Part shown: positions 2,373 through 6,268 of the stretch, in pieces | How positions within the stretch are numbered: position 1 is the stretch's first letter | Layout of the letters: every line of letters begins with the position of its first letter | Origin: an uncultured Gammaproteobacteria bacterium | GTDB lineage: Bacteria; Patescibacteriota; Microgenomatia; JALYQM01 | Direction of reading: 5' to 3' | Assembly: GCA_964525495.1 (NCBI GenBank) | Contig: CAZGHS010000001.1 | Location: 10,863 to 74,862, forward strand | Length of the DNA stretch: 64,000 bases | The notes under the pieces: model-generated | What the model saw: the letters and a program-made list of their open reading frames with translations, nothing else | Databases searched by the model: none | What the model was told of the DNA's origin: nothing | Program-made: the position numbers and the translations under genes

Positions 2373-3434
2373 ATGTTTCAGGAAACCTCGCACAATCTAC
2401 ACTTACTTCCCAACCTACCCTACCAATGGATCAAAGATCATCCTGTACACCTTAAATCAGATAGAAGATATAGAGAACTTCTCCAAGCAAAACCCACCAA
2501 AAAATTATCCATCATCATCCCTTTTAGAAACGAGCTCCGCTCAGTTGAATCATTCCTCGTCGCATTAGATATGGCAAAAATACATTCTTATCCCATGCCT
2601 ACAACACTAATCTTTGTGCAAAATGGTTGCACAGATGGCACAGATAAAGTACTTACAAATTGGATACATGTTAAAAACAGTACCCGGCAAACACAAAATT
2701 TAGAAATTCTCCACCTCACAACACCGATAGAATCAAAAGCAAATGCATTAAACATCGCAAACGAAGTTGCCTTACAATCAAATAGCGATATTGCAATCAG
2801 TCTAGATATGGACAACTACTGCGATATCAACACAATTCCAGAGCTGTACTTAGCGCTTTCCCAGTCAGATGCCTCGCTTATCACTGGTACAACCATTACA
2901 CAGCCACGACGGATACCGAGAGGAAAATTAAAGGACATATGTATTCAGTACACATGCTTCAATCCCAAAAAAGATGAAGCGGTAGTAAACGGAATGGTCC
3001 AAGCATGGAAACCGCGGGATATAAAGGATATTGGTGGCTTCCCTCATGTTATTGGGGAAGACTACGCAACAGGATTATTACTTCGCAGTCAAGGAAAAAC
3101 TCATCGCAGATTGCCAGAAGCCAAAGTATGGGGATATAGGGCAAATACTTTCGAAGATAAATTCAAACAATTAGTGCGCGGGCAACGAAGTCTCATACAA
3201 CTTCGCGAGCTTTATCCCCACCTCAGAGATCAAATTCAAAACGATATGCCAGCAACTAATAATTTACTTAATCAGGTTACTGCACATTGGCACTGGGCGT
3301 CCAAAAACTACAAACGCATACCCTTTGCCCTTATTAACATGCCTATTATCTGGGCTGCTCAATATCAAGCAAAAAGACAACATCAAGAAGATCCTTACGT
3401 AAAAACCTGGACTCAAATCGAATCGACAAGATAG
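2373..3434 (+). CDS. Family 2 glycosyltransferase (GT-A fold)
   Basis: Characteristic GT2 N-terminus KKLSIIIPFRNE, a downstream DxD-like SLDMDNYCD, and a length of 353 aa. Confidence 0.6.
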   Translation: MFQETSHNLHLLPNLPYQWIKDHPVHLKSDRRYRELLQAKPTKKLSIIIPFRNELRSVESFLVALDMAKIHSYPMPTTLIFVQNGCTDGTDKVLTNWIHVKNSTRQTQNLEILHLTTPIESKANALNIANEVALQSNSDIAISLDMDNYCDINTIPELYLALSQSDASLITGTTITQPRRIPRGKLKDICIQYTCFNPKKDEAVVNGMVQAWKPRDIKDIGGFPHVIGEDYATGLLLRSQGKTHRRLPEAKVWGYRANTFEDKFKQLVRGQRSLIQLRELYPHLRDQIQNDMPATNNLLNQVTAHWHWASKNYKRIPFALINMPIIWAAQYQAKRQHQEDPYVKTWTQIESTR

Positions 3435-3555
3435 AAATAAAAAAAGCGCCACTTTGCAATGAGATTAATCATCACATCATGGCGCACGATCATGCAAACA
3501 CACTCGAATAGACATTCTCGACGAATATCATTCAAACGCATTCACACCATACAGG

Positions 3556-3810
3556 CTAGTTATCGTATCCACAGTCAGGACAATAAACGTGGGTGTCTCC
3601 TCCTCTATCGTTATACCTTCGAGAATTCGGATGCTTACACCGCCGCTGCAATTGCTTGATCCGAATCCCGATCACTTCTATCTCCTCCTTCAGCGGAGCC
3701 ATTCGTTCTCTGACAGCGTCAGCTTGTTTCTTTAATTCCTTTACCTTATCTGAAATCTCATTCTGACTCACAGATGCCTCCTTCTTAATCCTGATATCCA
3801 CAGTCGTCAC
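3556..3810 (-). CDS. Coiled-coil plus C-terminal zinc-ribbon miniprotein (paralog A)
   Basis: C-terminus RRCKHPNSRRY...CPDCGYDN. The N-terminal region is charged and helical. Confidence 0.45.
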   Translation of the reverse strand: MTTVDIRIKKEASVSQNEISDKVKELKKQADAVRERMAPLKEEIEVIGIRIKQLQRRCKHPNSRRYNDRGGDTHVYCPDCGYDN

Positions 3811-3997
3811 AGATATTCCCTACTTCACCCATCGCTGAGTACTTCCGCATATTTGGGTGAGAGCATCGTCGGATAAGTACGTTCCAATGTGCGTGCTGAA
3901 TCGCTATTTCACCTTCAAGCGCACGAATCCTCCCCCGGATCTGTTCCTTTTCCTTACGAATCGCAATCTGTGAATTGGGTTTGCGAGACATAGTCAT
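3785..3997 (-). CDS. Coiled-coil plus C-terminal zinc-ribbon miniprotein (paralog B), tandem to and overlapping paralog A
   Basis: C-terminus RRCSHPNMRKY...CDDCGYQD shares the motif C-x-HPN-x-R-x-Y...C-x-DCGY with the downstream paralog. Confidence 0.45.
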   Translation of the reverse strand: MTMSRKPNSQIAIRKEKEQIRGRIRALEGEIAIQHAHWNVLIRRCSHPNMRKYSAMGEVGNICDDCGYQD

Positions 3998-4197
3998 GTC
4001 CTTTCTGCCTGTATTTGAAAAGAGCGAAAATAGGAATCAGAATCAACTTCTGGGCCTATTTGTAGCCAATTCTTAGTTTACGTAATATTTACATTAACTA
4101 TCCACATGTTACAACAACAAACTTAAATGTCAATAACGTATTTTATACGTTTACTATTTAACAAAAGCGGAGTATACTAGTCAAAAAGGAGCAAGTT

Positions 4198-4815
4198 ATG
4201 TCTAACTCAATCTACCTCAACAGCCGTGTAGCGATCGACGTCGTTATATTCACTATTCTCGAAGAAAAGCCTCAGGTCCTCCTCCTCAAGCGTCACAAAG
4301 AACCGTTTCAAGGCAAGCTTGAGCTCCCTGGTGGATTGCTTATAGAAAATGAAACCGCTGAACAAACTCTCCAGCGTAAGCTTGGTGAAATTACCAACAC
4401 AAATAACACTCACTTTAACCAATTCCATACGTTTACGAACCCAGTTCGAGATCCTCGAGGTCGCACAATTTCTATTGGATTTCTTGCACTCGTAAATTCA
4501 GAAAAAATGAGCTCGGACTGTGACTGGCATGATGTTAATAATCTTCCCGAATTAGCATTTGATCATGCCGAAATTATTCAATCAGCCTCAAAATATTTAA
4601 AAGAGAATCTAAATCTTCAATTCCTTAAGAGCTATATGCCTATTTACTTCCCACTCAACTCACTTCAAACAGTTTATGAAGTAATACACAATGAAAAATA
4701 TGACAATCGCAACTTCCGAAAGCAGCAGCTAGCGTCCGAAAACATAGTCGAAACAGATAAGCTCGAAAAAGACGTAAAACACCGCCCAGCCAAATTATAT
4801 CGATTTAAAGAATAA
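4198..4815 (+). CDS. NUDIX hydrolase domain protein with a C-terminal extension (NrtR-like architecture possible)
   Basis: Nudix box GGLLIENETAEQTLQRKLGEITN (G-x5-E-x7-REuxEExGu pattern). 205 aa with about 70 aa beyond the Nudix fold. Confidence 0.6.
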   Translation: MSNSIYLNSRVAIDVVIFTILEEKPQVLLLKRHKEPFQGKLELPGGLLIENETAEQTLQRKLGEITNTNNTHFNQFHTFTNPVRDPRGRTISIGFLALVNSEKMSSDCDWHDVNNLPELAFDHAEIIQSASKYLKENLNLQFLKSYMPIYFPLNSLQTVYEVIHNEKYDNRNFRKQQLASENIVETDKLEKDVKHRPAKLYRFKE

Positions 4816-4859
4816 TAACCTATAGTATTTACAAATACCTTAGTCCATGATATAATCAC

Positions 4860-5460
4860 TAGTACCTTTTAAGTAAATTTTGAGGCTAATACACTCAATT
4901 CCTTTCCTTAAAAGTTTGAGCGTTACGCTCAAATCTGTCCCTTAACAGTAAAGATAGAGAATATCTCTTACCTCAAAATCTACAATCTCCTTACAGATTG
5001 GCTATACCCCGCCTGCACTCAATTACTTGAGTCTATACGGGGAATAGTCAATTTTATGCTGCAAATGCAGCAGGGAGAACTCAGTGTCTACGAGAATTGT
5101 GACAACTACACCATCTTCTGGAGTAGTTATCCAAGATTCCCATGGGCGGTTTCTAAACGGACGAGACAGATGGCAACCAAAACAATCCGCCGAATTCGCG
5201 TTTGTCCATCCCGAAGGAAAGCTCAGTCAGAGTGAACCTTGGGTCACAAACGCAGCCTGGATTTTCCCAGCACGCCATGTTCCCCACCAAGGAACACTCA
5301 TTACAGGAAGCCGAAAAGCATTTGGAACATAGTAGAGTCCGAGGGTAAGAGAAACAGACAGCACTTTTTGTGCGTTCAGGCGACCGTTGTTTACAACGTC
5401 CTCGCGTGCACCGCCTGAAGTCTGTCTCTTACCCTCTATCTTTACTGTCTTTTCTAAAAA
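4860..5460 (+). ncRNA. Candidate large structured RNA of unknown class; strand assignment tentative
   Basis: A roughly 700 nt gap between CDSs with clearly higher GC than its surroundings. 4945-4959 (acagtaaagatagag) is perfectly complementary to 5434-5448 (ctctatctttactgt). A 16-bp extended hairpin pairs 5341-5358 with 5421-5436 and has nested inner hairpins (ttcaggcg/cgcctgaa; cgttgt/acaacg). Further local hairpins: actcaa/ttgagt near 5011-5030, gttcc/ggaac near 5279-5295, ttgagcg/cgctcaa at 4915-4933. A -10-like gatataat sits near 4847 and a U-run follows the closing helix. The track ORFs inside this region look spurious. Confidence 0.45.
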
Positions 5461-5524
5461 TCTCACCACTATTGCATTTCTCACTCTTTAGCGACATAAT
5501 AGCTTCTGTATACAGGAGGTTCCT

Positions 5525-6268
5525 ATGCAAATTCGCATACGTACAATATTATTCGCAATTATTCCATTACTCGCACTCACTCTCACCATTTCCTCAGCAT
5601 CAGCTGAAGAATCAACACTTCGCACCAACACATCAAACAGAACAGCAAAACCAACCTTAGAAGATTTTCCAGAACGAAATATGGAAAAAATGCGCACTCA
5701 AGAATTGCGTATAGCCAGCAAAGCTAGCGATATCAAAGCTCGACAGGAAAAAATAGCAACGCGCACTGGAGACATGAAAGAAAAGCGAGAAGAACTCGCA
5801 TCCAGAGCGGCACAAATGCGCGAAGATCGTTGCAAAATGCTCAACGAACGAAACACTCTTCTCCTCACTCGATACGAAAATAACAAGGTTCGACACATTG
5901 CTGAATACCAAAACGTTAAGAAAAAAGTTGAAGAACTAGTTGCTCGACTCAAGACAGATGGCAAAGATACAACCAAACTCGAAGCAGATCTTCGCCAACT
6001 CGATGTGCTTATCAAAAAAGCTAGTGATGACTACACTGCATTCATAACAGCGCTCAAAGATACCAAAAACTATACCTGCGGCAAATCTGAAGGCGCTTAT
6101 GCAGATGCCCTCAAAAAAGCTATGGATAAACTAATGCTCGCACGCCAAAGCTTACTGGCTGTCCGCACATATTACCAAACAACTATCCGACCAGACATAC
6201 TAGCAATCAAAGGAACACGTCCAGCTAGCTCAGCATCACCTATTGGAGATACAACTAATACTCAATAA
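5525..6268 (+). CDS. Secreted coiled-coil protein with a signal peptide
   Basis: N-terminal hydrophobic signal MQIRIRTILFAIIPLLALTLTISSASA followed by long charged helical sequence. A Shine-Dalgarno ggagg lies 8 nt upstream. Confidence 0.5.
   Translation: MQIRIRTILFAIIPLLALTLTISSASAEESTLRTNTSNRTAKPTLEDFPERNMEKMRTQELRIASKASDIKARQEKIATRTGDMKEKREELASRAAQMREDRCKMLNERNTLLLTRYENNKVRHIAEYQNVKKKVEELVARLKTDGKDTTKLEADLRQLDVLIKKASDDYTAFITALKDTKNYTCGKSEGAYADALKKAMDKLMLARQSLLAVRTYYQTTIRPDILAIKGTRPASSASPIGDTTNTQ

Follow-up and report, generated by a model that had tools for sequence, protein, structure and literature searches.

The described systems closest to the two miniprotein genes A and B, which lie next to each other on the minus strand of a 64,000-nucleotide (nt) stretch of DNA from an uncultured Gammaproteobacteria bacterium (contig CAZGHS010000001.1, positions 10,863 to 74,862; the whole stretch is called the window), are the B-ribbon of TFIIB, the zinc hooks of Rad50-type proteins, TraR/DksA, YabA and the haloarchaeal CPxCG micro-proteins. 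A, B and their relatives, in the following called the family, combine a coiled-coil helix with a C-terminal zinc ribbon. The B-ribbon of TFIIB/TFB (PF08271) is a protein-binding module with the form of a small beta-hairpin ribbon, as predicted for the family. Human TFIIB carries the pattern C-P-N-H-P-D-x15-C-P-E-C-G and the family C-x-H-P-[ND]-x14-15-C-P-D-C-G, and both A and B contain the two knuckles that characterize PF08271, C-x(1-2)-[CH] and C-x2-C, at a distance of approximately 15-17 residues. In contrast to TFIIB, the first knuckle of the family has one residue between Cys and His instead of two, and the ribbon is located at the C-terminus and fused directly to the helix. The family proteins are devoid of the B-reader, the linker and the cyclin-fold core, and they are bacterial or phage-encoded, whereas TFIIB and TFB are archaeal and eukaryotic.

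The zinc hooks of Rad50, SbcC and LmuB share with the family a long coiled-coil helix that runs into C-P-x-C-G and a genomic world of phages and defence systems. However, a hook is formed by two CxxC pairs from two chains, whereas the ribbon of the family is predicted to be intramolecular; moreover, the family proteins end 2-4 residues past the motif and possess neither a descending helix nor an ATPase head. TraR/DksA proteins (PF01258, including Orf73 of phage lambda) resemble the family in their size of approximately 70 amino acids (aa), in the arrangement of an N-terminal helix and a zinc globule and in being encoded by stand-alone genes of plasmids and phages (PMC9239242). They differ by a C4 finger (CxxC-x17-CxxC) which is followed by a C-terminal helix. 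Kinship with TraR/DksA was rejected: no match to PF01258 was obtained at E ≤ 10, and the hhalign probability was 3.4%. YabA, a controller of replication initiation in Bacillus, oligomerizes by an N-terminal coiled coil and binds DnaA and DnaN by a C-terminal Cys/His zinc domain. This layout is the same as in the family, but YabA is twice as long and has a flexible linker and another zinc motif. Kinship was rejected here as well, the YabA model PF06156 giving coiled-coil matches only (E = 0.04-0.09, far under the cutoffs) and hhalign with a YabA sequence entered by hand a probability of 0.7%. The haloarchaeal CPxCG micro-proteins of the HVO_2753 type are likewise tiny proteins with C-P-x-C-G knuckles, and their function is mostly obscure. 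They differ from the family by their C4 sites, by the missing coiled-coil stalk and by their occurrence in other lineages, and in sequence they are not significantly similar to A or B; the N-terminal extension of one relative (P0131) gives a sub-threshold HVO_2753_ZBP match outside the family domain. Finally, a Lar-type restriction alleviation protein was considered and discarded (PHROG 6795 with E = 0.2; no Pfam match to PF14354). A and B are an undescribed variant within a known class, the small zinc-ribbon proteins.

The first-pass annotation had listed two open reading frames (ORFs) of 70 and 84 aa. Both are present on the minus strand, at 3785..3997 (gene A) and 3556..3810 (gene B), as described. 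The shared C-terminal motif reported there was found again: in both proteins a charged heptad-repeat helix precedes RRC-x-HPN-x-R-[KR]-Y ... C-x-DCGY. BLASTP aligned A and B with 21/59 identical residues (36% identity, E = 5e-12). This marks A and B as genuine paralogues and not as two motifs that are alike by coincidence. An overlap of about 25 nt had also been reported, which is probably an artefact of the longest-ORF start, since the overlap (26 nt) exists only with the longest version of gene B. On the minus strand the stop codon TAA of gene A (3787-3785) precedes AAGGAGG, and after five further bases comes GTG 3771. Gene B most likely starts at this GTG, 13 nt after gene A and with no overlap, because the spacing of AAGGAGG, the choice of two gene callers (71-aa form, P0001) and the alignment of the resulting N-terminus MSQNEI with the family N-terminus M-T-Q-E-E-I agree in this point. 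The 84-aa version from GTG 3810, which is called by JGI (P0175), is probably not used. Its JGI label 'coiled-coil DUF342 family protein' was rejected, as Pfam gives no supporting match. For gene A the start at ATG 3991 (68 aa, P0002) is more likely than the start at ATG 3997, since the ribosome-binding site AAAGGA lies 7 nt upstream of the former and just 1 nt from the latter.

In order to find relatives, several types of searches were carried out. Scans of A and B with Pfam, NCBIfam, PHROGs and PADLOC gave sub-threshold matches only, mostly to coiled coils, and word-index searches, which covered 5.8 billion proteins, gave back nothing but A and B. An exhaustive HMMER search was therefore made with a profile built from the two paralogues; among 1.84 billion cluster representatives it revealed 147 proteins at E ≤ 1e-3, each standing for one cluster at 50% identity. 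Most of these relatives have 60-70 aa, with a typical length of approximately 64 aa. The hidden Markov model (HMM) of the family recognized A with E = 1.4e-24 and B with E = 2.4e-24. An alignment of 81 of the 147 relatives (A2) was widened to 125 sequences for the analysis of conservation. Along the motif the conserved residues reach 99% (C), 99% (H), 94% (P), 100% (C), 86% (P), 95% (D), 100% (C) and 85% (G), and in the same alignment a hydrophobic residue recurs every 3-4 positions along the helix. The surface features with the strongest conservation lie in the ribbon (H-P-[ND], Y, M-G-E and C-P-D-C-G). A Pfam domain was present in 0/39 relatives listed with precomputed annotation, and the N-terminal extensions of longer relatives gave no Pfam match; in some members these extensions carry extra zinc-finger-like CxxC pairs. 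When four different members were compared by tblastn with 50,697 deposited phage genomes, nothing was obtained at E ≤ 0.01. The two proteins themselves occur only in the source genome and in one near-identical read assembly. Judged by this conservation, A and B are real, conserved genes of an undescribed small-protein family. The first-pass annotation had allowed for a known ribosomal or housekeeping family and for ORFs that are not conserved; the searches of Pfam, NCBIfam, PHROGs, PADLOC and the PDB and with Foldseek speak against the former and the 147 clusters against the latter.

The fold was predicted with AlphaFold2 using the family alignment. The model of B (predicted local distance difference test, pLDDT, 96.8) comprises a helix (residues 3-44), two short strands (51-54 and 60-63, both above 90) and a C-terminal knuckle. 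The heptad a/d positions of this helix are 10/13/17/20/24/27/31/34/38/41, and the candidate zinc ligands of B are C45, H47, C64 and C67. In A the helix spans approximately residues 8-42, with C43, H45, C61 and C64 as candidate ligands. Both proteins thus have one helix of approximately 40 residues, in which the 3-4 heptad pattern runs on without interruption. The ligands are thus a Cys and a His at the end of the helix (C-x-H-P), the Cys occupying a heptad 'a' position at its very end, and the two Cys of the C-P-D-C-G knuckle 14-15 residues on. Comparison of A2 with residues 1-60 of human TFIIB (sequence entered by hand) by hhalign resulted in a probability of 90.9% (E = 1.1e-6, 34 columns). 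This alignment pairs C-x-HP[ND] with C-P-N-H-P-D and CPDCG with CPECG. In a PDB profile search the TFIIB ribbon entries 1dl6 and 1rly matched the same part of the profile weakly (E ~0.5). Neither A nor B matched PF08271 itself (cutoff 29 bits) at E ≤ 10, and the relatives P0044 and P0131 scored 12.9 and 17.5 bits, under this cutoff. Foldseek found nothing at E < 0.1 in the PDB and BFVD, its best matches being alignments of approximately 22 residues to ribosomal zinc ribbons (E ~0.6) and uncharacterized phage proteins. PDB sequence searches yielded designed coiled coils and, with the profile, designed C2H2 poly-fingers (2i13, summed E = 1e-11). In the latter match the aligned elements come from two successive fingers, a His from the first and CPECGK from the second; it is a repeat artefact, because each stretch alone has an E above 0.5, and the pattern C-x2-4-C-x12-H-x3-5-H of a single C2H2 finger is not present in A and B. 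The proteins are thus predicted to consist of a helix and a C/H/C/C zinc ribbon with the ligand pattern of the TFIIB B-ribbon. The helical N-terminus and the C/H/C/C ribbon had been recognized before, and they agree with the 99-100% conserved ligands and the confident model. The ribbon had also been called non-canonical, which does not hold, since its pattern is that of the B-ribbon.

Related loci were sought by degenerate DNA motif scans of IMG/VR, species-representative genomes and metagenomes. IMG/VR contained 27 motif contigs (12/27 with full-length members) and the metagenomes at least 120 (44 with full members). The 185,579 species-representative genomes contained 39 motif stretches, only one of which was a full member. 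In the neighbourhoods of the relatives, runs of small unannotated genes occur together with recognizable phage functions, and integrases, a resolvase, DUF5131, MazG, Thg1, SNF2 helicases and NAD-dependent ligase were found among the neighbours. A pooled scan of 150 neighbouring proteins from 14 loci added replication proteins (DNA polymerase A, helicase, DnaC-like loader, dNMP kinase, primase-polymerase), proteins of repair and recombination (Holliday-junction resolvase, exonuclease, SbcC-like protein, uracil-DNA glycosylase) as well as KilA-N, portal and major head proteins. All-against-all BLAST of 49 non-redundant loci detected no gene family that is shared among them, with a SNF2-linked subfamily as the exception. 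Thus, the absence of a common neighbour indicates a stand-alone phage gene with no obligate partner, which as a rule is found in the early or DNA-metabolism region of phage genomes. The family as a whole resides mainly in uncultivated phages, within replication, recombination and early-gene regions. The first-pass annotation had proposed to follow the motif into other genomes; the essentially phage-borne nature of the family, which this revealed, had been overlooked there. Three copies are clearly cellular, namely those of this window, of a Candidatus Uhrbacteria contig (L079) and of a third contig (L062), where the member lies next to rpoC.

The SNF2-linked subfamily has a Y-C-Y tail (C-x-HP-x-LP-x-R ... 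CPDCG-x3-YCY) and directly adjoins SNF2-type DNA helicases on three independent contigs (Table 1). On the 208-kb contig L202 (2705-5195), the closest relative of B, P0003, begins 2 nt behind the full-length gene for an NAD-dependent DNA ligase and closely precedes a phage capsid gene.

Most of the motif matches in the genome collection were the same ribbon in unrelated larger proteins. The C-x-HP-[NY] ... CPDCG ribbon was observed in such proteins both in IMG/VR (L025, L034, L035) and in genomes (L043, L045, L067 and others). Thus, the ribbon is a more widely used module. Larger carriers include phage proteins ending in ...TEHSSTYRT-x-CPDCG-x-SHDSGD and recurrent ORFs of 455 to 850 aa with CGHPY...CPDCG from metagenome-assembled genomes of Solirubrobacterales and Conexibacteraceae, the latter ORFs being possibly MurT-like.

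The relation between A and B was examined by ranking. B is the 43rd among the matches of A, and A is the 56th among those of B. A has a 14-residue spacer with a Y-S-A-M-G-E-x-G loop, and its nearest relative is L185 (52% identity); B has a 15-residue spacer and shares 44% identity with P0003. Since each protein is closer to dozens of proteins elsewhere than to its neighbour, the pair is composed of two diverged subtypes and not of recent duplicates. Of the tandem duplication proposed earlier, the paralogy is therefore retained and the recent duplication is not. Double copies were also found elsewhere. A T4-like phage fragment (L183) carries a second adjacent pair of members (5793-6208); the genes that precede this pair encode a late sigma factor, SbcD, SbcC, HNH endonucleases and an FmdB-type zinc ribbon. 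Furthermore, two copies lie 1 kb apart on L125, and P0116 is a natural two-copy fusion. Read by eye, the heptad e/g positions are mostly basic in B, so that two B helices lying in parallel would repel each other, and alternate in charge in A; these charges would fit a pairing of A with B, although we regard this as a weak hint.

We favour the explanation that A and B form a two-gene operon of probable phage ancestry which encodes dimerizing, protein-binding zinc-ribbon miniproteins, and we assign a probability of roughly 55% to this reading as a whole. Each ribbon would bind one zinc ion, and the helices would pair as a coiled coil, probably as an A/B heterodimer here and as a homodimer in phages with a single copy. 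The regular heptads, the recurring double copies and the different subtypes of A and B hint at such a dimer or heterodimer. The exposed ribbons would serve as knobs for protein binding; they would modulate an enzyme of nucleic-acid metabolism and not bind DNA themselves. The first-pass annotation had suggested nucleic-acid binding, a general role which is not favoured here: the net charge of the family is +0.3 ± 3.0 on average and the ribbon is slightly acidic (mean -1.0), which argues against a conserved DNA-binding role. That of a regulator, also named there, is conceivable, as is a protein-binding role. The chromosomal pair would be a domesticated copy or the leftover of a lost mobile element.

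Several points weigh against this explanation. Zinc binding, dimerization and the target are all inferred. The AlphaFold2 model is a monomer that was read from confidence and secondary structure and not from ligand coordinates, the helix of B contains a proline at position 26, and the P0116 fusion, modelled without an alignment, reached a pLDDT of 66 and is uninformative on helix packing. Unlike the family average, A and B are both basic (isoelectric points 9.3 and 8.9), so this particular pair may bind nucleic acids. Around the pair neither prophage genes nor direct repeats resembling attachment sites were found, and a phage origin of this copy is argued from the family distribution and a modest GC shift. 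Finally, the comparison of phages with cells is uneven, the scan of the genome collection having left out the 14-spacer pattern.

As things stand, many phage families lack an assigned function and this is one more of them; the pair in the chromosome is curious but not surprising. Nevertheless, the analysis defines an unannotated family of at least 147 clusters at 50% identity outside Pfam, NCBIfam, PHROGs and PADLOC. Each protein has a mass of approximately 8 kDa, one metal site, one helix and a confidently predicted architecture, and is thus easy to test. If the ribbon were indeed a knob on an enzyme of replication, repair, transcription or defence, the family would represent a compact new module for the takeover of the host by phages. 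It could also serve as a small dimerizing zinc scaffold.

Among the alternatives, a modulator directed at RNA polymerase is unlikely. Here the ribbon would dock on the polymerase in the way B-ribbons attach to the dock domain, or the helix with its acidic start (M-T-Q-E-E-I) would enter the channel like TraR, DksA and Gre, and transcription would be reprogrammed during infection. TraR homologues of phages do reprogram host transcription (PMC9239242). A long N-terminal helix and a zinc domain within approximately 65-70 aa recall TraR, the ribbon matches the TFIIB B-ribbon including the weak PDB matches, and one member lies beside the late sigma factor gene (L183) and one next to rpoC (L062). 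On the other hand, the comparisons with TraR and PF01258 described above were negative, the C-terminal helix of TraR is missing, TFIIB-type ribbons are a generic fold with many partners and the neighbourhood evidence is anecdotal. We know of no bacterial equivalent of the TFIIB dock that binds such ribbons.

Quite unlikely is a small DNA-binding regulator or antitoxin-like protein, in which a dimer would bind a specific operator or neutralize a toxin. The basic character of A and B with their RR-C-K/S-HPN-x-R-R/K stretch is in favour of this role, as are the members with extensions carrying extra CxxC pairs or, in P0053, a segment that looks winged-helix-like by eye, and the divergent orientation of the pair to a transcription factor gene (NrtR-like). 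These arguments are opposed by the near-neutral charge of the family and its acidic ribbon and by the lack of Pfam matches in the N-terminal extensions. The antitoxin-like role raised in the first-pass annotation finds no partner: neither a toxin-like nor any other conserved neighbour was found across the 49 loci, and no toxin-antitoxin or defence model matched beyond weak LmuB matches. A type II antitoxin was rejected, the operon consisting of two paralogues only.

Very doubtful is the idea of a zinc-hook decoy, according to which the helix and C-P-x-C-G would mimic the ascending coiled coil and the zinc hook of Rad50-family proteins (SbcC, Lamassu LmuB) and cap or disrupt their dimerization through the hook, as a phage counter-defence or anti-SbcCD function. 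The hook motif of LmuB is 'CPxCG or similar' (PMC10586767), and the LmuB zinc hook is needed for defence (bioRxiv 10.1101/2025.03.14.643221). LmuB models were the only non-trivial library matches (E = 2.5e-4 for gene B), 7/81 members matched LmuB at E < 0.01 (best 2.3e-5), and residues 4-69 always aligned to positions 232-298 of the 565 in the LmuB profile, the apex region. Moreover, the family is phage-borne and sometimes adjoins SbcCD genes (L183). However, the LmuB scores are marginal and mainly reflect coiled-coil composition. With four ligands in one chain, which form their own ribbon in the model, a CxxC pair of a partner is not needed, and there is no descending helix. In addition, the neighbouring SbcC, a phage protein, carries a CPVC hook that the family HMM fails to recognize, and the Rad50 hook is absent from the best 60 of 149 PDB profile matches at E ≤ 10.

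Just as doubtful is a decaying remnant with no function in the host, that is, cargo left by a lost phage or mobile element. The pair is an isolated island of raised GC content, the family is otherwise phage-borne and both proteins are confined to the source genome and its near-identical read assembly. Nonetheless, neither reading frame is broken, and the ligands have all been kept, as has the heptad pattern. Good ribosome-binding sites, a promoter-like site and a clean terminator are present, and the two subtypes have been retained together.

Less probable still is a link to NAD or ADP-ribose, according to which the NrtR-type Nudix protein encoded next door would cooperate with the miniproteins or control them. 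A related Nudix gene adjoins 2/3 clearly cellular copies: that of the window encodes an NrtR-like protein with a Nudix domain and a winged helix and that of L079 (6317-7264) a fusion of Nudix and phosphoribosyltransferase, with 30% identity between the two Nudix domains (E = 4e-8). Furthermore, the member on L002 overlaps a Nudix gene, and an NAD-dependent ligase gene comes after it, the position of P0003 on L202 directly after such a ligase points in the same direction and L008 carries an ADP-ribosyl-glycohydrolase gene approximately 6 kb off. But two cases of related Nudix genes are too few to judge, the Nudix protein of L002 is unrelated, and phage replication modules often contain Nudix and ligase genes. 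Searches for the Nudix-box pattern and with phmmer detected no further NrtR-type neighbour in the 49 loci, and near the third cellular copy (L062) no Nudix-box ORF was detected. At the same low level we place the proposal that the family serves phage counter-defence or the takeover of the host by structural mimicry: a self-capped 'half zinc hook' (coiled-coil helix and CPxCG) would pair with the hook-proximal coiled coil of Rad50-family proteins such as LmuB or SbcC and disable them, and A and B would be a domesticated heterodimer of this kind.

The coordinates of the locus are summarized in Table 1. A promoter-like site and an intrinsic terminator bracket the pair, and because of this A and B look like one compact, self-contained small operon. 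The hairpin between the stop codon of gene B and the terminator possibly stabilizes the transcript. RNA folding of 3425-3560 on the minus strand gave -47.4 kcal/mol (z = -6.1 versus shuffles); owing to its long loop the terminator was missed by a simple terminator scan. The operon is convergent with a gene for a family-2 glycosyltransferase and divergent from the NrtR-like gene. The window is an ordinary bacterial chromosome with genes for PcrA, LepA, RNase Y, MurJ, a histidine kinase, Fur, YibE/F and a pilin. The GC content of the pair is 46.6%, compared with 40.0 ± 3.2% for the window, which is approximately two standard deviations higher and within the top 2.4% of windows of the same size.

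Table 1. Features of the miniprotein locus (positions in the window) and SNF2-adjacent loci on other contigs.
Feature	Position	Strand	Remarks
Gene A	3785..3991	-	68 aa (70 aa from 3997); 14-residue-spacer subtype, loop 'YSAMGEVG'; ribbon codons 3865-3788
Gene A ribosome-binding site AAAGGA	3999..4004	-	sequence reading
Gene B	3556..3771	-	most likely form, 71 aa from GTG 3771; 15-residue-spacer subtype; ribbon codons 3639-3559
Gene B ribosome-binding site AAGGAGG	3777..3783	-	in the 13-nt gap, 5 nt upstream of GTG 3771; sequence reading
Promoter-like site of the operon	4106..4133	-	TTGACA, 16 nt, TAACAT; consensus scan, 10/12 matches; pattern match only
Promoter-like site of the NrtR-like gene	4150-4178	+	divergent from the site of the miniprotein operon
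Near-perfect hairpin, ~25 bp	3487..3553	-	3' untranslated region, directly after the gene B stop, before the terminator
Intrinsic terminator	3435..3485	-	stem GCGCCAU...AUGGCGC (3485-3446), then UUUUUUUAUUU (3445-3435), U7
Family-2 glycosyltransferase gene	2373-3434		
NrtR-like gene	4198-4815		
SNF2-adjacent locus, L094	7245-9044		
SNF2-adjacent locus, L142	3025-4848		
SNF2-adjacent locus, L152	93-1748		

A repeat search reported no operator-like repeat in the intergenic region between the miniprotein and NrtR-like genes. By eye, a 15-bp palindrome ACGTATTTTATACGT (~4136-4150) can be read between the divergent promoter-like sites and a related ACGTAATATTTAC near 4078; these are possible candidate operators.

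Two further regions of the window attracted attention. A stretch of approximately 700 nt (4830-5530), located after the NrtR-like gene and ahead of the following one, contains no credible ORF and has a GC content of 0.47 versus ~0.39 in the flanks. On both strands this region folds much more stably than shuffled sequences, with -217 kcal/mol for the plus strand (z = -9.9) and -240 kcal/mol for the minus strand (z = -8.3). Rfam gave no match to 4830-5530 at the gathering score or at E ≤ 1, and the region is a candidate for a large structured non-coding RNA. The first 2 kb of the window, which seem to be free of ORFs, are coding, since an ORF of at least 597 aa on the minus strand (2-1792) runs off the left end. 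Read from its translation, this ORF may encode an ABC-ATPase-like C-terminal part.

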